Positions 6,872-43,773 of a DNA stretch of 64,000 nucleotides are shown here, one piece after another. How positions within the stretch are numbered: the first letter of the stretch is position 1; the number at the start of each line of letters is the position of its first letter. The notes beneath the pieces were generated by a model. That model did not search any database and had not been told where the DNA came from. It saw only the letters and a list, made by a program, of their open reading frames with translations. Both the position numbers and the translations under genes were made by a program. Source of the DNA: Nitrosopumilus sp. (GTDB lineage: Archaea; Thermoproteota; Nitrososphaeria; Nitrososphaerales; Nitrosopumilaceae); the NCBI GenBank assembly GCA_965214775.1, contig OZ243974.1, forward strand, positions 384,001-448,000. Direction: 5' to 3'.

Positions 6872-6872
6872 T

Positions 6873-8122: not shown

Positions 8123-8165
8123 TCTTATCCCCTATCCTCCTCGTAAATGTAATTTGTATAAATAA

Positions 8166-8585
8166 CTACCAAATCTTTCGTCTCCCTGATTGATACAATG
8201 CAAATGCCATTGCTCCAAACATTATTGCCAGGAATCCTATCATCGGCAAGGTTGCGACTTTGGGAATTTCCAATATTGCACTTCCCCATGCATAAAGGAA
8301 GATTGCCATTACGTCAAATACTACAAACATCAGAATGTACGGGTAATACTGCATCATAAAATGAGTACGTCCCTCACCACTCGGAACTTGGCCACATTCC
8401 ATCGGCAAAAATTTGACAGGATTGCTTCGTTTACGGGGCGAAACCATTCTAGAAATTATCAGTGCAGGTGCCATAGCTGCGCATGCAAACCCAAACATAA
8501 GTACCACGGTACTGTAACTGCCTGCTAATTCCCCGACCAATTTAGCTTTTGACCCTGATTTTTGTATAAAAAGGTATGCCTCCAA
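8166..8585 (-). CDS. nuoA: NADH-quinone oxidoreductase subunit A (true start probably downstream, about 8540)
   Basis: ECGQVP...YILMFVVFDV; first gene of the operon. Confidence 0.92.
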   Translation of the reverse strand: MEAYLFIQKSGSKAKLVGELAGSYSTVVLMFGFACAAMAPALIISRMVSPRKRSNPVKFLPMECGQVPSGEGRTHFMMQYYPYILMFVVFDVMAIFLYAWGSAILEIPKVATLPMIGFLAIMFGAMAFALYQSGRRKIW

Positions 8586-8712
8586 TTTTCAAGATGCAGA
8601 ATCCCATAATTGATTCCTCCTGACAAAACATTTGCAAAATCGATCTTTTTCAAATGCGTAATTCATAAAACAAACTTTTTGATCCATCTGTCTGTATGTA
8701 TGTCTGCTTGTA

Positions 8713-8862
8713 GTCTGTCCATCCTCTGTCTGTCCATCCTCTGTCTGTCCATCCTCTGTCTGTCCATCCTCTGTCTGTCCATCCTCTGTCTGTCCATCCT
8801 CTGTCTGTCCATCCTCTGTCTGTCCATCCTCTGTCTGTCCATCCTCTGTCTGTCCATCCTCT
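8713..8862. repeat. Perfect tandem array, 10 x 15 bp (GTCTGTCCATCCTCT)
   Basis: Counted directly; set in TGTC/GACA-rich low-complexity flanks. Confidence 0.97.
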
Positions 8863-9717
8863 GTCTGCCTGCCTGCTTGCCTGTCGTCTGCCCGTCTGCC
8901 CACACGTCTTTGCTTTCGTTTGACAATGTGTTTTTCCCTTGGCCTGTTCATCAATACGTGCTATTTGGTTTCTTCTTTGGATGAATTGAAGGCATTCCAC
9001 GCTTGTTCACAATGCTGTACATTGTATTGTGCGGCACGTTGATTTTTTTCCAAACATCCAGTTCTCAAAGCAGCGTAGATGTCTTGTGCAGGTATCTTTG
9101 GTTCCATCAGTAATTGATTTGAGACATGTCTGTTTGTCTGTATGTATTTCTGTATTTCTGTCTGTTTGTCTGTTTTTGCTGTCACTTTCACAAAGTTGGT
9201 TTCCGGGGTATGCCACGCTAGAATTTCAGAAAATTGTCGTACAGAATTGGGCAAATCAGTTCTAATTTCTTTTGCCATTTCAATTTTCTTGCCAATTGAG
9301 GTTGTAAAGGAAACTGCATCTAGAACTGCTTTCAAAGTATTTTTCTTCTTCTTCTTATTCATATGCGGCGCTCATTTGCAAATCGGTTTGGCGTAATGGA
9401 TCGGCCTGTCTTGGCGGCAGTTGTCAGGCACAAAAAAACGCCTGTGCGACAAAATTTGTGCCTGCAGTACGCCAAGGTGGCTTTTTGACTGCTTGTTGCC
9501 GTGTAACTGCAAAAAAGACCTATAGTTCAAATTCTTGGCGGCATTTCTCGCATTTGCCTCTCTCTTCTCCCGGAGGGCCCAAGAGAAACACCTTGCCAAT
9601 CGTGTTACACACAGGGCACCTTCCCGTGGTTGCATTTTTAGGACCGGTGCGTATGATTTTTTGAGTTTTTCTTCGTCCCATCGGCAGAACTTTGCGTTTT
9701 GGCCTATTAAGGTTTAA

Positions 9718-19559: not shown

Positions 19560-19964
19560 TAAACCGATCATCATGATTTAGCCGCAGGCCAGAACAGAAC
19601 CAGAAAACGATTCGTACTCTTGTTATTCGGCATCATACTCCCATGAGACGGAAGCGATCAGGAACCGCACAAATTGGGGGCATATTGACAAGAGTGGGCG
19701 TTCAAGTCATCTGCCTGTAACTGCCAACCGACCATTGTAGGATCTGGTATGAGGCGTGTACGAGACGTTATATCAAATCTTATCTGTAGCGGACGCCATA
19801 TTATCCGTGTTGGGCCCAAGAGCCGAAGTAAACTTGCCACACATGAGGGCGTGTATGAGACTGGCTCAGAGTAGGCGGACGACGAAATGCCACATAATCG
19901 AGGGTAAATGGGAGTTTTCCGTTCAGTTGGGCACACACACTTTGATCAAAAAGGAGGTGATAAA

Positions 19965-21124
19965 ATGATCAACATAGGAATAGATGTTCATAAGAAGACA
20001 TGTATAGTAACCGTCAAGGACCAGACTGCAAAGATACTGGAGCAGACGGAGTTTTCCAACACGTCATACGGGATAAAAAAATTTGCCGTACAGATCAAAA
20101 AGAGATATGCACGACGCAAGATCCGGGCAGTCTACGAGGCAACAGGAAACTATTGGATACTGCTGCATGATATGCTTGAAGACAACAAGATAGACACAAA
20201 GCTTGCGCATCCTGCCAAGACCAAGGCCATAGCGCATGCAAAACTAAAGGACGACAGGGTGGACTCTGAAGTGCTGGCAGACCTGCTCAGGACGGACATG
20301 GCGTACGAGTCGTTCGTGCCTGACAGATACTACAGGGACCTGCGCGGCCTCTCAAGGGCCAGGATCGACGCCGTACGCCTGGGAACCGGCGAAAAGAACA
20401 AGATAACTGCCATACTTGCAAAGGTATGTGGTCACCTATCCCCGCCAATCAGGCACGAATTAGTATACACAATTATGATTTCCATGCCTAGCCAGTAAGG
20501 GGACGTGACCACATACTTGCAAAGTATGCCGCAAAGCCCCCTACAAAGGGAAGATTCACCGTACAGGGAATCCAGTGGATGCACGAGCTCTGCAGAGACG
20601 ACGGCAAAAAGAAGTACAACATCTCAGAGATGGACAAAATGATGATAAGCACAGGACTGGACAGGATTGAGATGATGCGACAGCAGGTAGTGGAATTTGA
20701 GCGCAGGATTGCAGCCATCTGCATTAACGATCCCAGAATCAAGCTCCTGATGACGGTTCCCGGAATAAGCTACGTGACCGCACTTGCCATAATATCCGAA
20801 ATAGTGGACATAAAGAGATTTGCCACAGCAGAAAAGCTTGCAGCATACGCGGGCCTGATACCGTCACATCACAACAGCGGTGAGACCATACGGGGCGGAT
20901 CCATAACTCGGACTGGTTCTGCATGGCTTCGGTACGCCATCGTAAACGCAGCCACGGTAGGGGTGCAATACGATACCAGGATGGGTGAGAGATACGACAG
21001 AATAGCCAGACGCAGGGGAAAGCAAAAGGCCAAGGTGGCAGTAGCCAGAACGCTTGCAAAGGTGATCTGGCACATGCTGACTGATGAAACGGAATACCGC
21101 ACGCAGGACAAGGAACTCACGCAA
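19965..21124 (+). pseudogene. IS110-family recombinase, interrupted by a MITE and by the IS6 cargo transposon
   Basis: GIDVHK, YEATG, KDDRVDS (DEDD), TVPGIS, AYAGLIP...SG; SD GGAGGTG at 19953-19959. Confidence 0.93.
20424..20516. mobile_element. 93-bp MITE (family C) inserted in the IS110 gene
   Basis: TIR GTATGTGGTCAC/GTGACCACATAC; 8-bp TSD TTGCAAAG; removal restores the frame. Confidence 0.93.
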
Positions 21125-21137
21125 GGAACTGGGAAGT

Positions 21138-22286
21138 TTACGGTAGATGATTCTCCCTGGGAAATGCCGGTAGACTGGATTTTGAGGCGTTCTGAATGAT
21201 GGTCTTCCACTTGTCCTTGCCCTGAATCCTGATGCCTGCCCTGTCTGCTGGTGTATCGCCTTCCAGTCCTTGGTGGGGCCTGATGTAGTTATGGTGAATC
21301 TGCATTCCTGTGAATATGGCAGAGTCATCCTTCTTGATTCCCCTGACTACCTTTTCCCTTGCCCTCAGTGTATTTCCGTTGAAGGACTCCATCTGGTTGT
21401 TGTTCATGTCACCCGCCATGTGGATGTGACGGCGGTGCTCGGTGTCCTTGTGAAGAAAGTTCTTTGGCCTGTACTGCTCATTCCACGCATGGTGAAAGTT
21501 GGCAGCTCCGTCAGAGATCAGGGTCTTTGGGATTTTTTTGGCCTTTCTTTTGGCATCTGTAAACATCGGGGAGACATCATCATTTCCCTTATGTTCTGCC
21601 ACCATCTGGGATAGCCAGAAACGGGTCTCGCTGTCCAGCATCGCAAAGAGGTATTTTCTGTCGCCCTTGATTTTCAGGTAGAGCTCGTCTGTCCTCCATT
21701 GCTCACCTACTTGTGGAGTTATCCTGTCTAGATACTTCTCCATGAGGTTTACATATTTCTTGACCCAGTTCTGAACCGTCCTGTATGTGACGGTAATTCC
21801 AGTCAGTGTCAATGATTGTGCTGTCTTTCTTGATGATTCCCCGTTAAAGTAGAGGTTCATTGCCATTGTGATTTGGTCTGGGGTGGCACTCATGTTTTCA
21901 AATCCTAGGTTGATTGAAAACTTGCGTTTACAGTCATTACATCTGAACATCTGAACATCATGGTTCTTGTTGTGTCGTACACCCATTTTTACTATGTTTG
22001 CAGAATTGCAATACTTGCAGGAGTCAATGGTGACTTCAGGGATTACAACATCATCTTTGACTTTTTGGTGAATCTTGGCAGATATTTCAACTGCGTGGAC
22101 ATGCTTGCAGCAAGTCCTGCGGAACTGGTGATCCTCGCAGGAGCAGGCCCAGCCATATTCAGTGGAAATAACGTCATGCTGTTTGTCTCTTGATTGTGAG
22201 TTTACTTTGTAATGGCTTTCATTTATTCGTACAATTTGGTTTTGTTTTTCTGCTATCTGCTTTCCTCTGATCTCTCTTTGGTTCAT
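21138..22286 (-). CDS. IS6-family DDE transposase with N-terminal SWIM-like and Zn-ribbon motifs
   Basis: CSCEDH..CCKH, CKYC..CNDC, WRTDELYLKIKG, ISDG, NNNQMESFN. Confidence 0.88.
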   Translation of the reverse strand: MNQREIRGKQIAEKQNQIVRINESHYKVNSQSRDKQHDVISTEYGWACSCEDHQFRRTCCKHVHAVEISAKIHQKVKDDVVIPEVTIDSCKYCNSANIVKMGVRHNKNHDVQMFRCNDCKRKFSINLGFENMSATPDQITMAMNLYFNGESSRKTAQSLTLTGITVTYRTVQNWVKKYVNLMEKYLDRITPQVGEQWRTDELYLKIKGDRKYLFAMLDSETRFWLSQMVAEHKGNDDVSPMFTDAKRKAKKIPKTLISDGAANFHHAWNEQYRPKNFLHKDTEHRRHIHMAGDMNNNQMESFNGNTLRAREKVVRGIKKDDSAIFTGMQIHHNYIRPHQGLEGDTPADRAGIRIQGKDKWKTIIQNASKSSLPAFPRENHLP

Positions 22287-22493
22287 GCGGATCGCACCTC
22301 AAAAATTAATATTGGATTGGAATCAAAGAGATTCAAGGACTCGGTGTCAACCGCGTTCTTCGTCATTGGGAGGATCATTCCCTCTGACTCTTGATTTTTC
22401 TTCATAGTCTTTCTCGCTCCTTGATTCATACCAATAAATAGTTGATATATCATATAAATCTATACCAATAATTAATTGACATAAAAACATATA

Positions 22494-22736
22494 ATGGGAG
22501 GTTGTGTGATTCATTGTATGGGGACTGTCGTATACCGCCAGCGTGGAGACAAAGAATATGTTTACTACGTCTATTATGATGAAAAGCGAAGAACAGAGGT
22601 TTATTGCGGACTGTCTTCAGATCCGGAATCTGACAAAAAAATCCTGCAATGCAAAAAAAACGATCTTACCAAACAGAAAGCCAACATTACAAAAGAACTT
22701 GAAGTAATTACAAAAAAAATCCAACGTGGAACATGA
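22494..22736 (+). CDS. Small hypothetical protein (beta-rich N-terminus plus coiled coil), first gene of the R-M operon
   Basis: 80-aa ORF with ATGA overlap to the MTase; divergent from the transposase across an AT-rich promoter region. Confidence 0.6.
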   Translation: MGGCVIHCMGTVVYRQRGDKEYVYYVYYDEKRRTEVYCGLSSDPESDKKILQCKKNDLTKQKANITKELEVITKKIQRGT

Positions 22737-23762
22737 TGTCTGCTACAAAAAACACCCCGAAAACAATGATCCCGTTCATAAACACAATCCAGTGTGGCGA
22801 CAGTGCTAGGATTCTAAAACAGATTCCAGATGATTCGATAGATTTGGTTATCACGTCACCCCCCTACTTTCGGCAACGGGAATACGCTGGCTGTGAGGTG
22901 GGTGGTGAAAAACACGTGGAAGACTATATCGATGCGGTCATGGATGTGTTCCGTGAATGTGTGAGAATTACAAAGAGGTGCGGTAGCGTTGTCTTCAACA
23001 TGGGTGACAAATATGAAAACGGTTCTTTAATGCTGATCCCTTACAAATTTGCAATCCAAGCCATGAATGTAAAAAATGTAAAACTGGTAAATGATATAAC
23101 TTGGATCAAAAAGAATCCCACACCTAGACAGTTCAAAAGGCGCCTTGTAAGCAGTACTGAGCCATTCTTCCACTTCGTAAAATCATCCGATTACTACTAT
23201 GACATAGATGCATTTCAGGTCCGTAAAGACGACGACAGCCTGCCACCCACCAAAAACACGACGATTGGTAACAGATACAGAACAATGATCAGGGATTCGG
23301 AGCTTACCGCATCCGAAAAAAGAAAGGCGGTAAGAGAGTTAAACAAGGCCGTCAAGGAAGTGAAGGACGGCACAATAACAGGATTTAGAATGAAGATACG
23401 CGGCATACACGCACCTGCATTCGGCGGACAAAATGGTGGCAGAAAGATTCAGCTTGACAAGAACGGATTTACAATAATCCGGATGTCTGGAAATCCTCTA
23501 AAGCGGGATACGATAACCAGTAGTGTAGAAAGCCTCAGATGGAACAAACATCCTGCCATATATCCAGAGGTCGTAATATCGGAGATGATCCATCTCCTCA
23601 CACCCCCCCCCCAACAAGACCATAATCCTTGATCCATACATAGGAAGCGGCACTACGGGAGTGGTTGCCAAAAAGACAGGCAGGCAGTTTATAGGCATTG
23701 ATATAAATCCCGAATTTTGTGATATGGCCGCCAAACGTATTGAATTGGTTGATGAAATATGA
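22733..23762 (+). CDS. Beta-class N4-C/N6-A DNA methyltransferase, frameshifted at a C10 tract
   Basis: ITSPPY motif IV; motif I ([10 protein letters not shown]) lies one base out of frame after 23603-23612; the restored stop overlaps the ATG at 23759. Confidence 0.88.
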
Positions 23763-24862
23763 ATGTAGAACATCACCACTGTCTGAAAATATTAAAAAAG
23801 TGCCTCAAGGAGGCCGGTGTGCATGTGCCAGTATGTGGTGATGACGTAAAAAAACACCTAGATGTCATTATTTCAAACAGTGAAAAAAAGAAGGCGGTTT
23901 TGGCAGTAACAGTGACATCGCTGACAAAGAAGGCGGTAGACCCGCAACAAGACATCCGGCGTCATCAGAGTGGGCTTGATGGTGGATATTCAGGAAGAAC
24001 CCTTGATACCAAGACAGTCACCCCGTTTCTCAAGGCCAATCAGTTTCCAGCCATGTCGGAGTCCGGATGGCTTACACGATCCTTGGAACAGAATCAACCA
24101 TACACATTGGATTACAAAGGCAGTGTCACTCCACATAAACTAAAGCAGGCATTCTTGTGCACGTTGGACAGGGTGCAAAACCACGATGAATCCCCCATAG
24201 AACTGCTAACATATTTGTTGAGTGGATTAATCAAACAACGAGATGAAAATACCAAACTCAGACTAGCCAAACCCGTAGACCTGCCAATCAGGACAATCAT
24301 GTCATATCTAAATAAGCATTTCATGTCTCAGTATAGCAGTGCAGGAGGTTCCAGACTACCGGTGTTGGCGATATACGCTGCATATCAACAGATGATTTCC
24401 GAGGTGGGGCGATATAGAAAACATGTCCTAAAACAACTCGAATCACACACATCACCAGACAGGCGTTCTGGTGCAACTGGAGACATTGAGGTTGCAGACG
24501 AGCAATCCAAAATTTTTGAGGCCGTAGAGGTGAAACATCGGATTAGAATAACGCCTTCTTTGGTAAGAGAAGCACATATGAAATTCAAATCAGAGCCAAT
24601 CAAACGGTACTATCTATTGACCACGGATGAGCAGGATCAGAACAGTGAAGAGATAACTGCCGAAGTTGTAAAAATCAGTCAGATTCATGGATGTCAGGTT
24701 ATTGTAAACGGGGTCATGAACACCCTGAAATACTATCTTCGTCTATTAAAAACACCCGACGACTTTGTGCATAATTATGTGCGTCTGATAGAAAAGGATG
24801 AGTCAGTAAAGTTCGAACATAGACAACGCTGGAATGACATTGTTCAAAATCAGGGAGCGTGA
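23759..24862 (+). CDS. Putative type II restriction endonuclease (PD-(D/E)xK)
   Basis: TGDIEV...EAVEVK motif; coupled to the MTase. Confidence 0.72.
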
Positions 24863-24869
24863 CACTCCA

Positions 24870-25088
24870 ATGGGACGGATTTATCATGGCAGACCAACCA
24901 CTCACACCAACGGAAAATGTCCAAAATGCGGAGTAATTGGATTAATGGATTTGTTGGGTACCGCAACCATATTTGATCTTTTTTGCGTTCCAACAATTGA
25001 GTTTTACACGCCTGATTTAGGTATTACGCAACAATACGCGACAAGAGTCTTGCCCCCTCCGGAAGATATCGCGTGGAAGGCACGGTAG
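24870..25088 (+). CDS. Small hypothetical protein with CPKC motif
   Basis: ATG 8 nt after the REase stop; weak evidence. Confidence 0.35.
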   Translation: MGRIYHGRPTTHTNGKCPKCGVIGLMDLLGTATIFDLFCVPTIEFYTPDLGITQQYATRVLPPPEDIAWKAR

Positions 25089-25252
25089 TAAAGACCCCGG
25101 CAGGCAGTGTCACCTGTGGGGCATGCCGGCAATCACAAATCCTTGAATGCCATCGACCGTTTGCAGGGGTGTCTGATCATAAAGCACTTCAAGAATTTTT
25201 ACCGGCCGGTACAAGCCCTTGCCGCAGGTCGGGCCCGCCGTGATCGCGCTGG

Positions 25253-28200
25253 CTAGCCGAGGCCTGCCGCATGCAGCAGCCGCACCTGCCGGGCCGACAG
25301 CTCGGCGCCGTACACGCGCAGCTCGTCAAGAACCGAGTCGATCCTGTCGGGATCCCACCAGGTGGTGGTCCTCACGGTGAACGCATGGTCGTTTGTCGTG
25401 CTGCCTGCCAGCCCCAGGCCCCTGCGGTATTGGCCATAGTCCCGGTGCTCGCCGTCGATATACGCATTCAGGCCCTCCTTTGCGCCCGAGCCGTCGTACG
25501 TGAATGCGATATGGTGCCAGGCCCCGTCTGACATGTTCAGGTGGTTGGGGGTGTGCACGTTTATGAACGTGGAGTTGTCGTGTATCAAAAGCAGGATCCT
25601 GTTGGGCGCCCCTCCCCATATCCACACGTACAAGCCGGTATGGCCGAACGACTCTGCCTTGGACATTATCATGGTGCTGTTGTTGACGGGCACGTCCTGC
25701 CTGAGCCAGAACGCTATGCTGAACGGGTCGGTGCGCCCAAAGTCAAAGTCGGCCTCGCCCGCAAGGGCGACGTTCGTAGAGCCGTCAAGCTGCAGCCCCC
25801 TGCCTATCCTGCCAGGCACGTACGTGACATCCCCTGCAGCCGCCGTGCCGTTGTTGTCCCCCGTTGCATCTGTCAGGCTGCCCTCAAAGGACAGGCCTGC
25901 CACGAGCTCCTCGTAGGGGGCCGTTACGGCCACGGGATCGGCGATCGTGACCCGTATGCCGCCCATCGGACTTCCGTCCCCGTCCACCAGCCCGACCCTG
26001 AACGTGCCTCCCGCCGCTGCGTCCGCGTCGTCGGCGGTCCTCAGCAGTATCGTATACTGGGAGCCGGGCGCGTTGATCGTGTGGTACCTTACGTCGTACG
26101 CGGAGCCTGCGTGGTTGTCAAGCTCCATCGTGCGGCGCCGCTGCCCCGGAAAGTCCGTGCACACCGCAGTGTCGCACCCGGAGCCCTCCGGGAATCCCCC
26201 AAAGTCGTCCACGGTAAGCGAGCTGCTGTATATGGCAAGGGCGTCGTGCTGGTGCCTTGCGCCATCAACGGTCACCGTATACTCGAAGGTCTGTCCCGGA
26301 AATATCCTGTCGGGGCCCGTGATCCTCCAGGTGGTGTCCCCGTCCGTTATCGTCCTCGTGGACGGCGGCATCACCGTTACCGGTATGCCTCCCACCTGGT
26401 TGTTGTTGCTGTCCATCATGCCGACTGTGGCCTGCGTGCCCGCCGGCGCATCGGCTGCCGGCTGCAGCAGTATGGTATGGCTGGATCTGGACTTTTTCAT
26501 CTTGTTGTGCATGGCAGTATACGGCGAGTCCTCGTCACTGGCTATCTTGTACGTGTCGTGCTTTTGCTCTGGAAACCCCGCGCATATCACGGTCTGGCAG
26601 TCCGTATCGGAATCGTGCCATCCGAGGTCCCGCTCTGTACACGGCAAGGGCCTCCTCTCGCGGCCTTGCCCCGTCCTCGAGTGTTACGGTATACTCGAAG
26701 GTCTGCCCCGCAAACACCCTGTCCGGACCCGTGACGCTCCACGTGGATCGGCCCGTGCTCACGGTCTGGGAGACGTCCAGGACGGCGTCAGAGGCGTCCA
26801 CGTGTATGACAAACCAGTCCCTCTGCGAGTTTGCAGAGCCGTCTGTCGCCGTGCATACTACCTCGGTGAATCCGGGAGCAAACGTCGATCCGGACTCGTG
26901 CGTGCACGATACTGCCACGACCCCGTCTACGAGGTCGGAGGCAGTCGGCGCATCGTAGCTGACTGCCATTCCACGGCCCGCCGGATCATCTACGTCTATG
27001 TCGCGCAGGCCGGAGATGGCAGGCGGCGTGGTGTCCCGTATCGTAACAGTCTGGGTGGCCGTCGCCGCGTTGCCTGCAGAGTCGGTGGCAGTCCACGTGA
27101 CTGTCGTGTTGCCCAACGGGAACGACTCTGGGGCGTCGTTTGTAATTGTGGGGCTGGGATCGGCAACGTCGGTAACAGTGGAAGTCCCATAGTCGCCGGC
27201 ACTCAGGACCGTCATGATGCCGGCAGCCTCGGCCGTATGATCGGCGGGTGCCATGATCCGGGGCGGCGTGGTGTCCTGTATCGTAACAGTCTGGGTTGCA
27301 GTAGCCGCGTTGCCCGCAGAATCGGTGGCAGTCCATGTCACTATGGTATCGCCAAGCGGGAACGATTCCGGTGCGTCGTTTGTGATTGCCGGATCCGGAT
27401 CCGCAATGTCGGATGCAGTGGCCTGCCCTATGGATACGGCAGTCAGCACGCCGGAAGCCTCGATTGTGACATCTGGGGGTGTGGTGATGCTCGGCAGTGT
27501 CGTGTCCTGTATCGTAACAGTCTGGGTTGCAGTAGCCGCGTTGCCCGCAGAATCGGTGGCAGTCCATGTCACTATGGTATCGCCAAGCGGGAACGATTCC
27601 GGTGCGTCGTTTGTGATTGCCGGATCCGGATCAACATCGTCTGAGGCCACGGCGTCGCCCAGACCCACGTCGGAGGCAGGGGTGAGGACGGCAGTCGCCT
27701 CGGCCGTCACGTCCTCTGGCGCCGTGATTGAAGGCGGCGTCGTGTCGCCTGCGTCACCGTCGTATATCCGAATGTCGTCAAGCTCCGCATCCTCGTTGTT
27801 TGAGCTGGAACGCGCCTCGAACCTCACCTTGAAGGAGTCCGACGCGTTTGAGAGGACATAGCTGTGGTGATGCCAGGCGCCGTCGTCGCCTGCGTTGTTT
27901 GCGGTAAAGTTTGCAAGTTGGATCCACGTGGTGCCGCCGTCACTGGAGGTGTGGACGTATATCCCCTCGTTGTTTGAGACGTCGGCCCCCGTCGCGACGA
28001 ACCTGTAAAAGCTGAGCACGGGCTGGGACATCTGCGTCAGGTCCACCACGTCTATCATCGTCATCGAGCACACGTCGTCGCAGTCCTCGGCTCCCCCCAC
28101 CTTGTTTCCGGGCTGGGATCCCGGAACTGGCTCTGTCGGGTCTGGCCTGATCGACCAGTACTCGTCATCGCCCGTGGTCAGATGCCACCTTGAGAGATCC

Positions 28201-29897
28201 ATCCCCTCAAAGTCCTCTGCAAAGGAGTCGACGGTGGCCTGCACCGGCGCATCAAGCGTCACGGTGACGCTGCTTGTGGCGGTTGCGCCGTCCCCGTTTG
28301 CCGATTCCACTGCGATGGTGTGGTTGCCGTTGTCCAGTCCGGTCAGGACCGATTCAAAGCTTGCAGTGACGTCGGATATGTGGGTCACCTCGACGGGATT
28401 CGTGGCAGGTACAATGCCGTCTACGTAGACCTTCACGTACTCTATCCCAGAGCCCTCAGGCTCGTAGACCCACCCCGATACTGCGATGTCTGGCACGGTT
28501 ACGGTGGATCCTGCTGCCGGGGCCGTGATCGTTATGACTGGCGGCGTGGGATCCTCGATGTTTACGTTCACCAGGTTCGAGGCAGGCGACAGCCCGTGCG
28601 CGTTTTTGGCAAATATCCTAAAGTACATGTCGTAGCCGGGATATCCGGTATGCTCGATGCTCGTGGTCGTTTCAGAGACGGTGTCGTGAAGGTTCCATCT
28701 CTGGGTGTCCGGCGACCTTTCTATTCTAAACGAGGTGATGTTAGAGCCCCCGTCGTCCGGGATGCTCCAGGCAAGCGTGATGTTGTTTCCCGACAGGGTG
28801 TAGGAAAGGTCGTCGACCGGGTCGGGTACGGTCTGCGTGGACGGCCCGACGATCGAGATCACCCCCTCCCTTGTGTGGCCGATTCTCTTGTCCGTGACGG
28901 TGTACCTTATGGTGTCAGATTCCGGCGTGGAGCTTGCCGGGGTGTACTCGAGCCGGATGGCCGTGCCGTTTGTGGTCGGGATCTTTTCGGTGGTGCTGGT
29001 GTGGCTCAGGCTTCCCTTTGTGGGGTGCTCTTTGAGATAAAACGTCAGATAGTCGCCGTCGGTGTCTATTGCGTTTATGTCGACTGTGACCCTGTCGTTT
29101 GTGGCCACGTCTATGTCCCTGTTCTGGACCGTGGGAACCTGGTTTCTGGTTGCGATGTTGTTGCAGTCAAGCGATGTCACGGTTCCTGCGATAAACGAGT
29201 TGCCCCGGCATTCCTTGCCGATGTACCCCTCCGAGACGGACGGCTGGGACAGGGAGGCTGAGGCGGGAAGGTTTGTCCAAGAGCCGTTCTGCCTTATCTT
29301 CATGCCGGTGAACTTGCTCATCGGAATTGACGAATAGTCGTCTGTGGCAGAGACGGTTCCCTCTATTCCAAAGTTGCCATGGTAGACATTATTTGGATTC
29401 ATGAAAAGCTGCGCCTGTGGGTACGGGATTGTCACGTCCGGGGTCGTGACATACACCTGGACGTTGCTTGTCAGGTACTTTTGTATCTTTACTGATATGT
29501 CATCGCCGGGATCAACGCGACCGTTTGATACTAGGTATTCTTGGTAAACATCAAGATCGCCTATCACATAATTAAATCCATAATAGGTGCTCAGGACGGC
29601 GACGCATCCAACGTTTAGGAAATGTCCTTTTGTAACTCCTGCCTCCACCCATTCCCCGGTATTTGCAACCAGCCAGCCGGCAGCTGCTGCGGTATTGTCG
29701 CATTCCGTCCTGTCTATCCACAGATCCGGCGAATCCAGCTGGTACTCTATGCCTTCGATTGGGGTAAGACGGCTGGTCTGCTGCCATACATGGCAACGAG
29801 GGTCAGCACAGTCAAAGATTCCAAATGCGTCCTGGCCATATGCAACAATACACAGTGCAAAGACTGCAAAAAACAAAACGGGAAACTTGGTCATCAT
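25253..29897 (-). CDS. Large secreted multidomain protein (signal peptide, possible peptidase domain, Ig/cadherin-like, FN3, HYR repeats, LamG); frameshift near 26640
   Basis: ORFs 26535..29897 and 25253..26647 share a duplicated module (TWxVTGPDRxFxGQTFEYTVT); HYR-like DTTPP...FPLGDTIVTWTATD; LamG DGAWHHIAFTYDG...LDELRVY. Confidence 0.8.
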
Positions 29898-30889
29898 TTT
29901 ACCGCCGACAAGCTGTTAAAGACGGGCAACAGCTCATCAAGCGTGTGATAACGTGAATTTACGCCCATCGACGTATGTTCATCATGATGGAAGCTGATGC
30001 CTGCACGATAATGATTCAGGGCATTTCCGCCCTCAAATGCACTTACCGTTTTCCCGTCATGCGTCATCTCCCTGAAGCCCTCCCCGTAGTTGCCGGGCTG
30101 GGAACCAAAAACTTCTTTGATATATTCTATCTCATCTTCAATCTCGTCAAGAGGAACAACGCTATACTCGGCCCAAACCCTAAATCCCTCGGAGAACTTC
30201 AATTCATAGTTGGTCACGTTTTCGTTTAATACAAAGGTAGTTGGAACAAACTGTATCCTCAGCTTGCAGTCACCTGAAGGGTAGCAAGTATTGTCTGCAT
30301 ACAGCAACCGCTGCCCATCAGGAATGTATGTGGGCATCCAGTCCTCAATATGGAACCCTACTCTGGGGGTTATGGAGTATTTTTCATGCTGTGTTGCAGA
30401 CAGTCTTATCAGGTTGTCGGGGCCGACATCGTCGGGGGTTATGTCACTGTCCATGATATTTTCATAGTAGGGCCACGGGGGAGGGTATCTTGCAAGTGTG
30501 GATCTTTTGATCTCCCGCCCGTCATCGACGAACTCCACGGGAGACGAGGCACTCAGCACCACAAATCCGTCGACTTCTCCGGCATCGGGGCCGTCGATGT
30601 TGCTGCCGTGCCCGGCTTTTGCCGCCTCCGGCAGCTGCAGGTCATGGCGTTCTGCTGCCTGTGCTACCGGCACCCATCCCTTTTGCAGCAGTTTTTGCAC
30701 CGAGCCCTCACTGACGCAGGCAGGCGTTCCGCGCGTGGTCTCCATCAGCGTCTTTGAATCCCGGCACTGTATCTCCTCTAGCGCGATACCGCTTTGAAAT
30801 TGTTTGTAGGGAGTGTCAGTTTCTGCAAATGCAGGCATTGCAGATAATCCGATTGCCAGGAACAGTCCCAGTAGCGTCTTGTAGATCAC
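29894..30889 (-). CDS. Secreted protein with thaumarchaeal N-terminal Cys motif (PxKQ..GI..IxC...GxPACV)
   Basis: Signal peptide; the same motif occurs in 41252..42894; ATGA-coupled to the downstream gene. Confidence 0.75.
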   Translation of the reverse strand: MIYKTLLGLFLAIGLSAMPAFAETDTPYKQFQSGIALEEIQCRDSKTLMETTRGTPACVSEGSVQKLLQKGWVPVAQAAERHDLQLPEAAKAGHGSNIDGPDAGEVDGFVVLSASSPVEFVDDGREIKRSTLARYPPPWPYYENIMDSDITPDDVGPDNLIRLSATQHEKYSITPRVGFHIEDWMPTYIPDGQRLLYADNTCYPSGDCKLRIQFVPTTFVLNENVTNYELKFSEGFRVWAEYSVVPLDEIEDEIEYIKEVFGSQPGNYGEGFREMTHDGKTVSAFEGGNALNHYRAGISFHHDEHTSMGVNSRYHTLDELLPVFNSLSAVK

Positions 30890-31008
30890 TGGTTTTTCAT
30901 AAAAGGGATTCTATAAAAGTGATCCCTGCAATCTAGTCGTAAGTTATGCCCCATCAACGGATCAGATCTGGTTGTTGCGTAATTCCACTTGATTGATTTC
31001 TACAACAT

Positions 31009-31128
31009 CAGTCTTCCCAGAAGTTACCCACAAGACGGCTCCAAACCTGAAATAACACAGATCAGACTGCCTGCAGGCCCGCATGTAGCCACCTGCACCG
31101 CCATGAGTCTGGCACATCCGGGAGACTG
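31009..31128. mobile_element. About 120-bp MITE (family D, CAGTCTTCC ends)
   Basis: Similar to 55721-55838 and the split copy at 52084-54318. Confidence 0.75.
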
Positions 31129-31289
31129 ACTTAACAGTCCCATTCATAAAATCCCGCCAAACGACAGTGAACACGGCAAAATACCAAACGCAGATTACAC
31201 AGAACCTTGTAACTATTTTTTATTTATTAGATCTACCGACATTTCCCAAGGAGAATCATCTACCGTAAACTTCCCAGTTCCTCACGCAA

Positions 31290-31334
31290 AGAAAGTATAA
31301 AGCGATGGAATGTCTAGTAGATACGTCTGACTGA
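31290..31334 (+). pseudogene. Displaced C-terminal 14 codons of the IS110 recombinase
   Basis: After the TSD reads RKYKAMECLVDTSD*, in frame with ...DKELTQ at 21124. Confidence 0.85.
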
Positions 31335-31382
31335 ACAACGCACACTCGCAGCGGCCCGTGCAGGGAATCAGCATAATTTGAT

Positions 31383-31473
31383 ATGGGAGTTTACCCCTCA
31401 GGCGACACTGCTGGTCGGAGCCTTGATCACCGTGCCTACCACGTCGTATTTTCTGGAGGGGGTGAGATCTTAC
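31383..31473. mobile_element. About 91-bp MITE (family B), degenerate, inverted
   Basis: Reverse-complement similarity to 45775-45865. Confidence 0.75.
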
Positions 31474-31684: not shown

Positions 31685-34600
31685 TCAGCCCCGCAGCCGT
31701 CTTGCGGCGACGATGGCGGCCACAGGAGCTGCTACATACATGCCGATATTCAGGGCAATAACCGAGGCGCCCAGCGCCAGCACCGAGGACTCTGAGCCCT
31801 CCTCTGCAAGCGACATTATCGACAGCGTCGAGATCATCGGGGATATGGCAATCCTTACGGCCTCGCGAAATACCGGGCTCTGGCGCTCCAGGTCGGCTAT
31901 CGCAGGTGAGAACGAGTAGTATACAGAGTTGAATCCGGCAACAAACGAGGAGCCCGAGTCAGTAGAGAGCAACGTACCGTCGCGTATCTCCCTGAGTGCC
32001 TGCACCTGCGGCGCCATCTCTGTTCCGTATGCTGCAGTCGCTATCAGACACGAGCCGCCTAACTCCGAACCTGCCTGCTGCTCGGGCTCGGGCTGTGCCG
32101 GCGTATGGGGCTCCTCTGGCATCTCCGGTTCGGGCTCGGGCTGCACCACGGTTTCGGGCTCGTCTGGTACCGGCGGCTCGGTTTCGGGCTCGGGCTGCAC
32201 CACGGTTTCGGGCTCGTCTGGTACCGGCGGCTCGGTTTCGGGCTCAACTATTGCATCACGCGGCTGGCCGGCTGCTCCTTGGTCGATATCTGCAGACAGG
32301 GACATCGGAGTGTCGTACGTGCGCTCGCCCACACATGCGTCCACGTTTACCGACTCATAGTCAGAGGTCAGGCTCTCCCCAGAATGCAGGATTGCGCTAA
32401 CGCCGATGTATGTCTCGTTCTGGTGCATGGATGCCGTAAACACCAGTCCCTCTTCTGTCTGGCCTGCCGCCGTAGTCGCGTCTGTACCAGTCAAGGTGGT
32501 GCGCACCGAGACCGAGAGATCATCGGAGACGGGTCCGGCGGTAACCGTTACGAGTCCGGCGGTGCAGTCCCACGATATGGAGGTTATGTATGCCAGATCC
32601 GCGTCGGCTGTGGTTGAGATGATGCCGATGCGGCCGCCTCCGCCTCCGCCTCCGCCGCCTCCGCTGTTGGTGCGGCCGGCAGAAGGCTGTGATCCAGTGC
32701 TGCTACCGCCGTCATCGTCACGGGTCTGGACCCGCTCGGCGAGTACAATCGGGTTGTCCGGCGAGTCGTCTATCTGGTTGCCCAGCAGATCCGATACGGC
32801 GCCTGCTGCAATATCGAGCTGCGGCGTGCCCATCGGGGTTATCTGCCGTATCTGGGACTCTACAAGCGTGAGGGAAAGGGTCTCAACATCAGCGGATGCA
32901 AAGTCAAAGCCGGCGCCTGTCAGCGGGACTGTGTCTGCCTGGTTTATGTCACTGACATACAGCAGGGACAGGCTGGTAGCAGAGACGTCTACGGTCTCGC
33001 TGAAGGTTATGGTCATGGCACCCGTGTCCTCGTTGAGGGTTGCAGATTCAAAGGAGAGCCCTGGGTCGTCTGCGGTTACCGTGATCGGGTTATCCGGCGA
33101 GTCCCCTATCTGGTTGCCGAGTATATCAGATACGGCACCAGAGGAAATGTCGAGCTGCGGCGTGTCCATCGGGATTATCTGCGTCAGCTGGGACTCTACA
33201 AGCGTGAGTGAGAGGGTCTCTGTATCGAGTGTCGCATCGTCAAAGCCGGCGCCTTCCAGCAGGACGGTATCTTCCTGGTTTATGTCGCTGACGTACAGCA
33301 GGGACAGGTTGGTTGTCGATACGTCTATCGTCTCGCTGAAGGTTATGGTCATGGCACCCGTGTTCTCGTCAAGGGTTGCAGACTCAAATGTCGGGGGGGC
33401 GGTATCGTGCACATACACTATCCTGATCGCCGTTGCCGTGTTGCCGTCATCGTCGGTGGCAGTATATGTGACCAGATAATCCCCGAGCACGTTGACGTCG
33501 ACCTGTGATGTATCCGTTGTGACTTCAGAACCGTCGTCGGTCGTGGCACCTGGATCTGCGTACGGGGTGCCCAGCTCATGGATCAACGGGTTGTCTCCCA
33601 CAAGTGATATGACAGGCGGGATGCTGGATGCGGCCTCATCTAGCCTCACCACCTGCAGACCGTCATCGTATTCGGAGGCCACTGCGGCGTAGGTGCTGCT
33701 GCCCATCGTGAATATGTCCACGTCGCGCGGGCCGTCAAGCAGCAGGGAGGTCGTGTCTGCAAGATTCCCGGCACCTACCGGGCCGGCAGGATCGGTGACG
33801 TCGATAATCTGGAGGCCGTCGTCGGCAAAGGAGGCAGCTGCCACGTAGGTGCTGCTGCCCATCGTAAATGCATCTATACCGTTGACGTTGCCAAGCAATA
33901 GTGAGTTCGTGTCTGCAAGGCTGCCGGCGGCGGCGGGGCTGGCAGGGTTTGTGACATCGACAATCTGGAGGCCATTGTCTGTCTGTGAGGATATCGCCAC
34001 GTAGGTGCTGCTGCCTATCACAAAGCTGGTCACGCCTTGAGGGCCGTCAAGCCGCAGGGTGTTGTTATCCCCCAGGCTGCCGGCGGCGGCGGGGCTGGCA
34101 GGGTTTGTGACATCGACAATCTGGAGGCCGTCGTCGGCAAAGGAGGCCACTGCGGCGTAGGTGTTCGAATTTATCTCAAAGATGGCCACTGCGTTGGCGC
34201 CGTCAAGCTCCCTGGAGCCATCATCATCCAGACTGCCGGCAGCGGCAGGGCTGGCAGGGTTTGTGACATCGATAATCTGGAGGCCGTCGTCAATGCTGGA
34301 GGCCACTGCGGCGTAGGTGCTGCCGTTTATTGTAAAGATGTCCACGCTGCGGGCGCCGTCAAGCAAAAATCCTTCTATCGGAATGTCCCCCACCTCATCT
34401 ATGGTGTCTTCCAGATTCCCGACTGCCACAAGACTGGAAGGGTTTGTGACATCGATAATCTGGAGGCCGTCATCTGTGCGGGAGGCCACTGCAGCGTAGG
34501 TGTTAGCCCCTATAGCAAATATGTCCACGCTGCGGGCGCCACCAAGCAGCAGGGTGTTGTTATCCCCCAGGCTGTCGGCAGCTGTCGGATTGGATGGATC

Positions 34601-37054
34601 TGTGATGTTGACAATCTGGAGGCCGGCGTCGCGGGATGCGGCGACTGCAGCGTATGTGTTCTGCCCGATCGCAAAGACGGCCACGCCTTGGGCGCCGTCA
34701 AGTTCTCTGGAGCCGGTATCATTCAGATTCCCGACGGGGGTAAGCGTGATTTCAGAGGTGTCCATGTCGGCCACGACTATGTCAAAGGTTTGCGAGTTTG
34801 TGCCACCTCGGTCGTCGTTTACGGTTATGGTGACTGTGTGGGTCTGTCCTGCGTCTGCCTGGACAGGCGTCCAGATGAGGAGGCCACCAGAGGTGGAAAA
34901 TACGGCAGCTGCCGGCAGCGTGCCGCGCGATATGGAATACGTGTGCGTGTCAGTCGGATCATCGTCAGTTACCGTAGGCGTTATGACCAGCTGTATGCCC
35001 GGCGTCGCGTTCTGGTCGCCTATTGTACCCATTACGGGGGCGTTGTTGTCGCGCGTTACGGTTACCGTTACGGTTCCCTGCGCCGTGTCTGTTCCATCAG
35101 ATACCGTATATCCGAACGTGTCCGTACCGTCATAGTCCTGATCAGGCGTATAAGTTATCGTATCATCATCATGAGTGGCAGTCCCGTTTGGCGGGTTATC
35201 TACTGCCGATATCACCGGTGTGTCCGATGTGTCTGGATCCGATATGGCAGGCGTTATGGTAACGGGTGTATCCTCTGCGGTGGTTGCCGTCTCGGCTGGT
35301 GCCACCGGCGGAGCGTTTGGCGTCTCTGTCACCGCTATGTCAAAGGTTTGCGAGTCGGTGCCGCCGCGGCCGTCATTTACGGTTATGGTGACTGTGTGGG
35401 TCTGTCCTGCGTCTGCCTGGACAGGCGTCCAGGTGATGCTGCCATCAGATGTGTTGAATACGGCAGCTGCCGGCAGCGTGCCGCGCGATATGGAATACGT
35501 GTGCGTGTCAGTTGTGTCGGCATCAGTTACCGTAGGCGTTATGGTCAGCTGTGTGTCTGGCGTCGCGTTCTGGTCGCCTATTGTACCCATTACGGGGGCG
35601 TTGTTGTCGCGCGTTACGGTTACCGTTACGGTTCCCTGTGCCGTGTCTGTTCCATCAGATACCGTATACCCGAACGTGTCCGTACCTTCATAGTCTGCAT
35701 CGGGCGTGTAGGTTATCGTATCATCGTCATGGGTGGCAGTCCCGTTTGGCGGGTTATCGACTGCCGATATTACCGGGGTGTCCGATGTGTCGGGATCCGA
35801 TACGGTAGGCGTTATGGTAACGGACGTGTCCTCTGCAGTAGTTGCCGTCTCGGCTGGTGCCACAGGCGGGCTGTTGGGCGTCTCTGTCTCCAACCTCACT
35901 ATCTGGAGGCCATCATCTCGGATGGCAGTCACTGCAGCGTAGGTGCTTTCACCTATCACAAAGACGTCTAGGTTGCGGGCGTTGGCAAGCTTCCTGGAGC
36001 CGTTATCCCCCAAATTCCCGGCTGGGGCGGGATTGTCAGGATCGGTGACGTTGACTATCTGTAGTCCGTTGTCGGATCCCGAGGATACCACCACATAAGT
36101 GCTGCTGCCTATCGTGAATACATCCACGCCCTGGGCGCCGTCAAGCCTCAGTGAGCCGCTATCCTCCAGACGCCCGGCTGGGGCGGGATTGTCAGGATCG
36201 GTGACGTTTACAATCTGAAAGCCGTCGTCAGTCCAGGAGGCGACTGCGGCGTATGTGTTGCCGCCTATCACAAAGGTGGTCACGCCGCGGGCGCCGTGAA
36301 GCTCCATGGAGCCCGTGTCACTCAGTTTCCCGGCCGCTGCCGGGTTGGTCGGATCCGTAACGTTGACTATCTGGAGGCCGTTGTCATCAACTGCGGCCAC
36401 TGCAGCGTATGTGTTGCTGCCTATCGTGAATACATTCACGCCCTGGGCGCCACTAAGCTCCAGGGAGCCGTCGCCATCGGCCAGATTCCCGACGGCGGCG
36501 GGATTGTCAGGATCGGTGACGTTTACAATCTGGAGGGCATTGTCCACGTGGGCTGCCACTGCGGCGTAGGTGTCGCCGCCTATCGTGAATACATCCACGC
36601 CCTGGGCGCCGCCAAGCTTACTGGAGCCGCCATCAGACAGATTCCCGACGGCGGCGGGATTGTCAGGATCGGTGACGTTTACAATCTGGAGGCCCTGGCT
36701 GTAGGCGGCCACCGCTGCGTAAGTGCTGCTGCCTATCGTAAAGGTGTCCACGCCCTGGGCGTCGGAAAGCCGCGCGGATCCCCCGTTTGCCAGACTGCCG
36801 GCGGCCTGCAGACTGGCAGGGTTGGAGACGTTTACAATCTGGAGGCCGTCGTCACCTTCGGAGGTCACCGCAGCGTAGGTCCGGCTTCCTATTGTAAAGA
36901 CATCCACGTCATGGGCGGCATCAAGCAGCAGGGTGTTGTTATTTCCCAGGCTGCTGACGGCAACTATCTCGATCTCGCTCTGCTGCGCGTACGCACCCTC
37001 CGGCAGGGCCCCGGCAGCAGCAAGGCCCAAGACGGCGGCCGCAACAAACGCCAA
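31685..37054 (-). CDS. Giant surface protein: LVIVD-like repeats, cadherin/Ig-like domains, PEPE linker, CFI-box-CTERM anchor
   Basis: About 15 repeats of TYAAVA..DDGLQIV(N/D)VTDP; duplicated Ig-like block; C-terminal SCLIATAAYG...LREIRD plus TM helix. Confidence 0.9.
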   Translation of the reverse strand: MAFVAAAVLGLAAAGALPEGAYAQQSEIEIVAVSSLGNNNTLLLDAAHDVDVFTIGSRTYAAVTSEGDDGLQIVNVSNPASLQAAGSLANGGSARLSDAQGVDTFTIGSSTYAAVAAYSQGLQIVNVTDPDNPAAVGNLSDGGSSKLGGAQGVDVFTIGGDTYAAVAAHVDNALQIVNVTDPDNPAAVGNLADGDGSLELSGAQGVNVFTIGSNTYAAVAAVDDNGLQIVNVTDPTNPAAAGKLSDTGSMELHGARGVTTFVIGGNTYAAVASWTDDGFQIVNVTDPDNPAPAGRLEDSGSLRLDGAQGVDVFTIGSSTYVVVSSGSDNGLQIVNVTDPDNPAPAGNLGDNGSRKLANARNLDVFVIGESTYAAVTAIRDDGLQIVRLETETPNSPPVAPAETATTAEDTSVTITPTVSDPDTSDTPVISAVDNPPNGTATHDDDTITYTPDADYEGTDTFGYTVSDGTDTAQGTVTVTVTRDNNAPVMGTIGDQNATPDTQLTITPTVTDADTTDTHTYSISRGTLPAAAVFNTSDGSITWTPVQADAGQTHTVTITVNDGRGGTDSQTFDIAVTETPNAPPVAPAETATTAEDTPVTITPAISDPDTSDTPVISAVDNPPNGTATHDDDTITYTPDQDYDGTDTFGYTVSDGTDTAQGTVTVTVTRDNNAPVMGTIGDQNATPGIQLVITPTVTDDDPTDTHTYSISRGTLPAAAVFSTSGGLLIWTPVQADAGQTHTVTITVNDDRGGTNSQTFDIVVADMDTSEITLTPVGNLNDTGSRELDGAQGVAVFAIGQNTYAAVAASRDAGLQIVNITDPSNPTAADSLGDNNTLLLGGARSVDIFAIGANTYAAVASRTDDGLQIIDVTNPSSLVAVGNLEDTIDEVGDIPIEGFLLDGARSVDIFTINGSTYAAVASSIDDGLQIIDVTNPASPAAAGSLDDDGSRELDGANAVAIFEINSNTYAAVASFADDGLQIVDVTNPASPAAAGSLGDNNTLRLDGPQGVTSFVIGSSTYVAISSQTDNGLQIVDVTNPASPAAAGSLADTNSLLLGNVNGIDAFTMGSSTYVAAASFADDGLQIIDVTDPAGPVGAGNLADTTSLLLDGPRDVDIFTMGSSTYAAVASEYDDGLQVVRLDEAASSIPPVISLVGDNPLIHELGTPYADPGATTDDGSEVTTDTSQVDVNVLGDYLVTYTATDDDGNTATAIRIVYVHDTAPPTFESATLDENTGAMTITFSETIDVSTTNLSLLYVSDINQEDTVLLEGAGFDDATLDTETLSLTLVESQLTQIIPMDTPQLDISSGAVSDILGNQIGDSPDNPITVTADDPGLSFESATLNEDTGAMTITFSETVDVSATSLSLLYVSDINQADTVPLTGAGFDFASADVETLSLTLVESQIRQITPMGTPQLDIAAGAVSDLLGNQIDDSPDNPIVLAERVQTRDDDGGSSTGSQPSAGRTNSGGGGGGGGGGRIGIISTTADADLAYITSISWDCTAGLVTVTAGPVSDDLSVSVRTTLTGTDATTAAGQTEEGLVFTASMHQNETYIGVSAILHSGESLTSDYESVNVDACVGERTYDTPMSLSADIDQGAAGQPRDAIVEPETEPPVPDEPETVVQPEPETEPPVPDEPETVVQPEPEPEMPEEPHTPAQPEPEQQAGSELGGSCLIATAAYGTEMAPQVQALREIRDGTLLSTDSGSSFVAGFNSVYYSFSPAIADLERQSPVFREAVRIAISPMISTLSIMSLAEEGSESSVLALGASVIALNIGMYVAAPVAAIVAARRLRG

Positions 37055-42907: not shown

Positions 42908-43773
42908 TGTGTTATATGGAAATAATGTCCGCTATTCATTGATGTCCCTCTCCATCCATTTTGGGTCGGATTTCCTGATCGCTTCTGTGGCAGTTTTGTC
43001 CGAGAACGCCATGATGGGTGTCTGGCGGTGGGCTATGTCCAGCCCAAAGTGTAGCCTGCGCTCGTTGTAATACTTGATGTATGCATCCAAGCTCTCATAG
43101 TGGCGGATCTCAGCCTCTATGCTGCCGTGGAACCGTTCCAACTTGCCGTTGGTCTCCGGATGGTACGGCCTGGAGTTTATCAGCCCGATGCCCCGATCCA
43201 GCAGCTCGGCCTCAAAGGCAGTCGGCGTCCACGTCCCGCGTGGCATGTTCTTCTTGCTGCGGCCGCCGTTGAAACACCTGCCGTTGTCAGACAGTATGGT
43301 GGCCGGCTTGCCAAACCTGCCTATGGCCTCCCTGAGTGTTATCACCACGTTTTCTGATGTGGCATCTGCAAACGTCCGTGCCGCCGTGACACACCGGGAG
43401 GAATCGTCCAAAAACGTGACTAATTTGAGCCCTCTCAGGCGTGGATCCTTCATTTCGTGCCAGTCCACGTGCCACATTGCGTTGGAGTACTTGCGCTCAT
43501 AGCGCAGCCATTTCTTTTGGCCCGACTTGGTATCTGATGCGGCAACGAGTCCCTGCTCCTTCATTATCCGATATACGCTGTTGTAGCTTATAATGTGACC
43601 TGCATCCTGCAGGCGCATGGCAGTGCGCATCACGCCCACGTGCTCTATACAGTGCATGTCCAAGACTGCCTGCACCTGGCCTGCCGCGGGCTGCGGTGCG
43701 GCCTTTCTTCCAGCCTTTTGTTGCACATGCATCTTTCCGGTCCGGCGGTACCTGGCGTAAATCCTCCTCACGT
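42908..43773 (-). mobile_element. IS481-like element copy 2, 5' end removed at the ISH3 junction
   Basis: Transposase ORF 42932..43771 similar to 16753..17700; end TGTGTTATATGGAAAT at 42908. Confidence 0.88.

Follow-up and report, generated by a model that had tools for sequence, protein, structure and literature searches.

A 64,000-nucleotide stretch (the window, G000:C1:384001-448000) of the single-contig genome of a Nitrosopumilus species, 2,833,656 bp long with a genome-wide guanine-plus-cytosine (GC) content of 0.471, contains a 10-kb block at positions 21125-31281 that has the build of a transposon with passenger genes. From left to right the block consists of a terminal repeat, a transposase gene, a restriction-modification (R-M) module, a cassette of surface-protein genes and a second terminal repeat, and it interrupts a resident insertion sequence (IS) of the IS110 type. 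Here we describe the block and its relatives, and then weigh the explanations for its presence at this site.

Ends, target site and contents of the block

The block is bounded by terminal inverted repeats (IRs) at 21125-21174 (+ strand, containing the transposase stop codon) and 31232-31281 (- strand), which are complementary at 48 of 50 nt, both start with GG and have the tips GGAACTGGG.../...CCCAGTTCC. Tip to tip the block measures 10,157 bp, and the 8-bp sequence TCACGCAA stands immediately outside both tips as a target-site duplication (TSD), at 21117-21124 and 31282-31289. Repeats, block length and duplication had all been reported in the first-pass annotation, a model's reading of the letters, and were recovered from coordinates and alignment.

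The target site can be reconstructed exactly. On the left, 19757-21124 (+ strand) is part of an IS110-family element (Pfam DEDD_Tnp_IS110, 2.8e-24; Transposase_20, 1.8e-24), with multi-copy paralogs of this end from 19757 onwards, and its open reading frame (ORF) ends ...VIWHMLTDETEYRTQDKELTQ (...DKELTQ). On the right, 31290-31473 (+ strand) follows the second TSD copy and reads on as RKYKAMECLVDTSD to a stop, which supplies the last 14 codons, the stop and the 3' end; paralog matches on this side span 31281-31473. Two IS110 paralogs in the same genome lack the interruption and read ...TQDKELTQRKRKAMECLADASD and ...TQNKDLTERKYKMIECLVNTSD, each to a stop, across the insertion site (in longer form over the joint, ...DKELTQRKRKAMECLADASD and ...NKDLTERKYKMIECLVNTSD, again each to a stop), and the paralog DNA aligned to the left flank and that aligned to the right share precisely the 8 duplicated bp (genome 2382308-2382315). 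Removal of the block thus rejoins the IS110 frame exactly, as had been claimed.

The left IR leads into the gene for an intact transposase of 382 amino acids (aa; 21138-22286, - strand). The protein combines a SWIM-like motif (CxCx9CxH; C48, C50, C60, H62) and a Zn ribbon (C90, C93, C116, C119) with a DDE core (D200, D259, E300, plus R308/R310), and all of these residues, which are invariant in an alignment of 17 sequences of relatives, are kept in the window protein. The match to Pfam DDE_Tnp_IS240 (PF13610) reaches 52 bits against a cut-off of 27 (E 1e-13). Among the NCBIfam models IS6 is the best by far, followed by IS1 at 43 bits; the IS1/IS1595 Zn domain gives 26.8 bits, and a precomputed SWIM Pfam match is present on some homologs. 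No second transposase was found inside the block, where tblastn gave one match only, so the single-transposase layout stands. Nor did the block contain an IR-like partner, the best local score being 11 against a shuffled mean of 11.2 and a maximum of 15. A second IR right beside the transposase, the arrangement that, if constant among relatives, the annotation itself had named as fatal to its view, is absent here, and relatives with defined ends enclose their cargo.

The R-M module, with a GC content of 0.39-0.46, follows on the + strand. Its first member is an 80-aa ORF (22494-22736) that has no Pfam match, overlaps the start of the methylase gene by 4 nt and joins cargo methylase ORFs of relatives in a blastp single-linkage cluster (E <= 1e-5). 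Next comes a type II DNA methyltransferase of the N6/N4 class (22733-23758; Pfam N6_N4_Mtase, 1.6e-24 over profile positions 1-181 of 221; PADLOC MTase_II, 6.6e-35), and then a putative SacI-like restriction endonuclease, an intact ORF of 367 aa (23759-24862). The small ORF, methylase and putative nuclease that the annotation described as an operon are all there, but the methylase ORF reads as frameshifted. A run of ten C residues (23603-23612) shifts the frame of ORF 22733-23632, which then stops, motif I for S-adenosylmethionine (AdoMet) lies in the next frame past the run, that frame ends just before the nuclease ATG, and no single frame holds the full catalytic and AdoMet-binding set. The frameshift may be a true break, a case of phase variation or a homopolymer error; the C10 run is the same in contigs of two studies and in a copy of the element from another genus (see below). 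The SacI-like assignment of the nuclease comes from atlas features, with RE_SacI in 29 of the 30 nearest atlas clusters (score 0.98), and from precomputed PF09566 matches on its own record and on 105 of 120 listed homologs. An hmmscan did not return PF09566 even at E <= 10, the Pfam, NCBIfam and PADLOC scans gave no match, and a sequence search against PDB chains produced chance matches only (E about 0.9).

The surface-protein cassette occupies a GC-rich block (24946-30997) in which GC rises to 0.59-0.64 over 25000-29000, against 0.471 for the genome. A short dispersed repeat (24943-25107; 10 genome matches) marks its border with the R-M module, and homology to the host paralogs begins at 24946-25032. 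Most of the cassette is taken up by a giant gene (25253-29897, - strand) for a surface protein with HYR repeats, Ig-like domains and a C-terminal LamG domain (Pfam HYR, 5.9e-29; Laminin_G_3, 2.7e-17). Upstream of it lies the gene for a 331-aa protein (29894-30889, - strand) with a WING-49 domain (NCBIfam, 6.5e-15) and an N-terminus that looks by eye like a signal peptide. An 11-nt deletion near 26625-26634 splits the giant gene into ORFs of 1120 aa (26535-29897) and 464 aa (25253-26647). All four aligned paralogs retain these 11 nt, and at five of six paralog loci a single long ORF of 1221-1828 aa ends in the LamG part. Where the annotation counted two secreted-protein genes of high GC, there are accordingly three ORFs, two of them halves of one broken gene; the high GC is real, but it is typical of a host family.

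At least seven genome loci match the C-terminal 2.4-2.8 kb of the giant gene at 84-89% identity. The 331-aa gene corresponds to the upstream gene of the paralogous cassette, two paralog loci having comparable ORFs (312 and 299 aa) in the upstream position, and 30674-30999 is 92% identical to genome 2037078-2037403. Because these paralogs belong to the host, and because a neighbouring 1789-aa gene outside the element is similarly GC-rich (0.56-0.63), the surface cargo is of host type rather than foreign. More generally, window 31685-37054 and the genome loci near 1226k, 1448k, 2043k, 2489k, 2692k and 246k belong to a family of giant surface proteins present in many copies, in which a C-terminal HYR+LamG module (about 2.7 kb) is conserved and the N-terminal parts vary, often with a gene for about 300-330 aa upstream.

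A near-identical copy in another genus, and a clade of relatives

A 3.2-Mb genome from another genus of the same family (G041, also G121) holds window positions 21129-31267 with no mismatches and two indels over 10,150 alignment columns. One indel is a 12-nt in-frame deletion in the transposase gene of the other copy, which removes NTLR just after E300, the window version being the family consensus. The other is the 11 nt missing from the window copy; these are kept in the other-genus copy, and the giant gene is therefore unbroken there. The flanks of the two copies are unrelated, and between the window's chromosomal genes and that genome identity is only 70-77%. Zero substitutions between different flanks, set against such chromosomal divergence, argue that the whole unit travels, and at the level of sequence the pattern is the signature expected of a very recent intergeneric transfer of the entire 10-kb block. 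Of 400 other family genomes sampled, this is the only one with the R-M module at high identity (100% over 2,651 bp); the remaining four matches among these 400 are at most 67% identical. An empty site corresponding to the other-genus copy was sought in the source genome of the window and was not found.

Two further mobile elements of the window, at 42908-43773 and 46204-47450, are 99-100% identical to copies in the other-genus genome, again versus 70-77% for chromosomal genes, and the two lineages appear to share a mobilome.

A search of the source genome for the IR types and their flanks yielded seven elements with GG-tipped IRs and matching 8-bp TSDs, from 2,366 to 53,577 bp long. The window element (A1) shares its IR type with A2 (genome 1942716-1996292; 53,577 bp; TSD ATAATGAG), in which the transposase has decayed to a C-terminal remnant. 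A2 has a GC content of 0.553 (genome 0.471) and contains one tRNA-Met, and one third of it has copies elsewhere. The two readings of A2 are a very large cargo transposon and a smaller one enlarged by later insertions. The other five have IRs that start GGTTCTGTG... and contain the cTGT motif given for the IS6 family in the available part of PMC7986276. They are B1 (genome 133208-136539; 3,332 bp; TSD AGTTCTGT), with an HNH protein and a methylase; B2 (591908-598351; 6,444 bp; TSD TGGGTTGC), with an HYR/propeller protein; B3 (1032248-1038595; 6,348 bp; TSD AAGAAAAA), with an EcoRI-like methylase, a GmrSD-N/HNH protein and GmrSD; B4 (1293463-1295828; 2,366 bp; TSD CTCTCTGA), with a BglII fragment; and B5 (2289845-2297554; 7,710 bp; TSD TCAGGCCG). 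B1 and B3 have in common 1,186 bp at 96% identity, starting from the exact transposase ATG, together with 122 bp at the distal end, and their cargo is unrelated, which indicates that cargo turns over faster than the transposase diverges. For one further paralog (p864k, 55% identical) a GG-tipped end was found and its partner end was not. L001 (genome 136467) and L003 (genome 1032320) each have, 72 bp inward of the distal tip, another IR-like sequence that belongs to a sister IR type; it may be an additional site for transposase binding or a scar that a former end has left.

Beyond this genome, the transposase was matched in 12 of 40 other genomes, 10 of these 12 being among the 24 that belong to the same genus. 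We examined 20 near-full transposase copies from 18 regions for ends. Five of them lie in TSD-bounded elements of 2.3-3.8 kb, and three belong to a distant clade (31-34% identity) of plain 1.6-1.7-kb ISs with 9-bp TSDs. The cargo of these relatives includes HinP1I with a D12 methylase, CfrBI with a methylase and, in an element without a TSD, BsaWI with a methylase. In a wider sample, in which each species was represented by a single genome, relatives are encoded by 533 stretches; the best 79 loci of these 533 were analysed, with ends sought, here as for the 20 copies above, in flanks of 10-18 kb on contigs many of which are short. IRs with 8- or 9-bp TSDs bound the element at 23 of the 79 loci (one of which, L044, repeats L026). 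These elements measure 2,332-6,670 bp; none is smaller, and not one of the 23 is a bare IS.

The passengers of the TSD-bounded elements comprise 70 ORFs of at least 90 aa, which were compared with Pfam at E <= 1e-4. DNA methylases account for 12 of the 70 (seven N6_N4 methylases, four D12, one N6_Mtase), and at least nine of the 23 elements carry one. Nuclease-related matches are HNH (three ORFs), HinP1I, MvaI/BcnI and Mrr (one each); the others are a SocA antitoxin and a Cyclase (one each), and Proteasome-subunit-like proteins, M10 peptidases and other, nested transposases (two each). Methylases and nucleases are thus the commonest recognisable cargo of the clade. A conserved accessory gene was sought by all-against-all blastp of 92 cargo ORFs, and since only a methylase cluster and the pair L099/L107 emerged, there is no universal second gene. 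The proteasome-subunit-like passengers are found at L081:3734-4543 and L096:9001-9738 (Pfam Proteasome, 5e-18 and 3e-14). At L029 (G021:C1:1780559-1788397), three full-length transposase copies stand within 8 kb, and an IR pair with a TSD is detectable for the middle one only.

Transposase relatives are also encoded on five viral contigs. One of them, a predicted viral contig of 55 kb from IMG/VR (L124), has at locus positions 6555-9137 a relative of 2,583 bp, bounded by IRs and a 9-bp TSD, and is a possible vehicle between cells.

Interpretation, alternatives and known systems

Window 21125-31281 is most probably an autonomous cargo transposon with a single transposase (a "transporter IS") that moved as one unit. 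This reading builds on features that are directly observed: the ends and TSD, an 8-bp staggered cut of the target, a target that rejoins exactly, movement of everything between the IRs, one transposase only, and that one intact, a copy with other flanks in another genus, and a clade built in the same way. The first-pass annotation had proposed a unit-transposon or transporter class of archaeal IS6-like elements moving defence and surface cargo, and the proposal gains support from the other-genus copy, the six further elements of the genome and the relatives elsewhere.

In the mechanism that we propose, the 382-aa IS6-like transposase would recognise the two 50-nt ends and insert the entire 10,157 bp into a resident IS110 copy, with a staggered cut of 8 bp in the target giving rise to the 8-bp TSD. 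The cargo that would be carried along sits between the distal repeat and the transposase start, first the R-M module and then the 6-kb cassette of the host surface family. By analogy with IS6/IS26, movement could proceed by replicative copy-in that fuses the donor and target replicons into a cointegrate; the host could then resolve this, through homologous recombination of the two long copies, to a simple insertion with a TSD. Such a route, with incoming DNA as the donor, would explain the single-copy state of each element here. The R-M cargo would be retained through protection of the host, through punishment of its loss (post-segregational killing, the addiction role suggested in the annotation), or both. 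A host genome would have supplied the surface cassette, in a single capture that preceded the last transfers; that the other-genus copy already holds it between the same modules places its capture before both insertions.

Several observations weigh against this interpretation. The other-genus copy has no TSD, three of its first four nucleotides differ and its last 14 nt are gone, and for these reasons its insertion cannot be shown to be the work of the transposase; moreover, the two genomes are assemblies whose independence cannot be judged. A second copy of the 10-kb element was not found in the source genome, and purely intragenomic replicative movement would leave one. No Logan contig bridges either junction by 31 nt, the contigs breaking at the IRs, and neither an empty-site joint (21124->31290) nor a circle joint is listed among them, though such contigs do not bear on mobility or expression. 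Among the relatives, 12 of the 20 copies lack a TSD-bounded pair (one with IRs and no TSD, two with doubtful partners, nine with none), and of the 79 loci 28 have IRs without a TSD and another 28 no detectable IRs. Both copies have the frameshift in the methylase gene, and this one also has a broken giant gene, so the cargo may be decaying. Finally, the transposase scores 100.9 bits on the NCBIfam IS6 equivalog (NF033587), under the cut-off of 125; the B1 paralog reaches 123.2. The earlier assignment to the IS6 type therefore holds for the IS240/IS6 core, the GG tips and the 8-bp TSD, but membership in the family is loose.

The best of the alternatives, improbable in our judgement, is passive carriage, in which the 10-kb unit would travel between genomes inside a larger vehicle, or through recombination, its present distribution owing little to the transposase and repeats. 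This would suit the altered tips and missing TSD of the other-genus copy, the four-residue deletion next to E300 in its transposase, the occurrence of relatives on viral contigs, and the other ISs common to both genomes at 99-100% identity. However, the window copy has perfect tips, its exact 8-bp TSD interrupts a known sequence, and the homology between the genomes ends within 4 and 14 nt of the IR tips instead of continuing into a larger shared island.

The block might also be the relic of a composite (pseudo-compound) IS6 transposon, whose distal IS copy lost its transposase and left the outer repeat behind. IS6 members classically move passengers between two copies, as the available text of Varani 2021 (PMC7986276) has it, and the distal end retains 289 bp (30995-31282) that occur elsewhere in the genome as a solo end (1879765-1880053, 97.6% identical). 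Yet the same text gives functional IS6 composites as direct IS copies, whereas the ends here are inverted single repeats, and we find no transposase remnant at the distal end and no inner IRs. The layout with one transposase recurs in the seven elements of this genome, in five of the 20 copies of relatives and in 23 of the 79 loci, and the distal ends of such elements are conserved over only 29-122 bp; independent decay to the same form is therefore unlikely. Taken together, these points make a composite origin quite improbable.

Still less can be said for a stepwise assembly at this site, in which a small R-M transposon of about 4 kb inserted first and the 6-kb surface cassette entered later by recombination with host paralogs. 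The closest relatives do measure 3.2-6.7 kb, and the cassette has at least seven host paralogs at 84-89% identity as well as dispersed repeats at its borders, but the other-genus copy already has the identical cassette between the same modules, and we regard late entry as very improbable. An assembly artefact at a repeat is scarcely credible: contigs do break at the IRs, none bridging a junction by 31 nt, but a mis-join would yield neither an exact 8-bp duplication nor an exactly rejoined reading frame, and contigs of two studies match the interior without differences (over 21183-25015).

We thus return to the single-transposase cargo transposon, and to how it compares with known systems. It resembles IS6/IS26 in a DDE core nearest the IS240/IS6 models, in the GG tips and 8-bp TSD, and in a transposase gene that ends in the terminal repeat. 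It differs in its 10,157-bp length, its 382-aa transposase with SWIM-like motif and Zn ribbon, its 50-nt IRs and its 9 kb of cargo. Known IS6 members are compact, at about 0.7-1.7 kb with transposases of 210-250 aa, as far as the available parts of two overviews go (PMC7986276, PMC6807381); PMC6807381 puts known members at 0.7-0.9 kb and those from archaea at 696-853 bp with transposases of 211-237 aa, and in PMC7986276 ISDsp3 is the only member given a passenger, a single gene. The clostridial clade h/i (ISCpe7-like) also has an N-terminal zinc-finger extension on an IS6-type core, in transposases of 340-350 aa (PMC7986276, available part), but these ISs, compared by description only, are bacterial, and the accessible entries give them as 1.2-1.3 kb long and cargo-free (PMC6807381).

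With transporter ISs and unit transposons the element shares one transposase and its passengers within one IR pair, moving as a unit, the difference being that the clade described here seems always to bear cargo, often R-M genes. Tn3-family unit transposons have a large TnpA, a resolvase or res site, and a 5-bp TSD. The ORFs of this element have no TnpA or resolvase Pfam matches, and its TSD is 8 bp. In IS6 pseudo-compound transposons two direct, full IS copies are expected; here there is one transposase between inverted single-repeat ends.

Bacterial R-M units between imperfect IRs with a short target duplication have been described by Furuta, Abe and Kobayashi (2010, PMC2853133), in the available part of that paper with no clear transposase and no archaeal case. 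The likeness lies in R-M genes between IRs and a target duplication, whereas here a transposase is present and the pattern recurs. In the same phylum, the thaumarchaeal mobilome survey of Krupovic et al. (2019, PMC6563490) presents IS-like transposons as elements of one or two genes and describes R-M genes on mobile elements; its available text also says that passenger-carrying DNA transposons other than casposons are undetected in archaea, thaumarchaea included. A passenger-carrying transposon is what distinguishes the present case. No earlier or later description of such elements was found in the literature searched, with ISfinder and supplementary tables (including Table S1 of PMC6563490) outside the search. 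The element is a cargo-bearing variant of an IS6-like transposon, new within IS6-like elements and not a new kind of system.

A broader proposal is tentative, and somewhat more apt to fail than to hold. It is that the widespread SWIM/Zn-ribbon IS6-like clade of Nitrososphaerota and Bathyarchaeia could be an obligately cargo-bearing family, the first unit transposons recognised in these archaea, in which passengers would be swapped rapidly around a constant transposase module, R-M genes, other defence or addiction genes and surface cassettes would be shuttled between genera, and the C10 run of the methylase would act as an on/off switch. An element with zero substitutions in two genera, whose clade shows passengers (mostly R-M genes where recognisable) in all elements with defined ends, contrasts with the 2019 statement for archaea in the available text of PMC6563490. 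Such elements would offer a concrete means by which R-M systems could have reached their known patchy distribution among ammonia-oxidising archaea, and a route by which host surface-protein cassettes turn mobile. The compact transposase and 50-nt ends may also be a candidate genetic tool for a group that has few.

Minor features near the ends

A MITE-like repeat of about 93 bp with its own terminal inverted repeats (20424-20516; 49 genome matches) lies within the transposase gene of the interrupted IS110 element and splits it, and the IS110 transposase ORFs are now 19908-20498 and 20579-21199 (both + strand), the second extending into the inserted block. A joint 20002->31387 seen in contigs was considered as an excision product and rejected, as it derives from another locus (genome 834788-835123).

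The distal subterminal region (30995-31231) holds a dispersed repeat of about 120 bp (30997-31130; 39 genome matches). A third family, beside this one and the MITE-like repeat, is a short dispersed repeat at window 31387-31473 with 50 genome matches.

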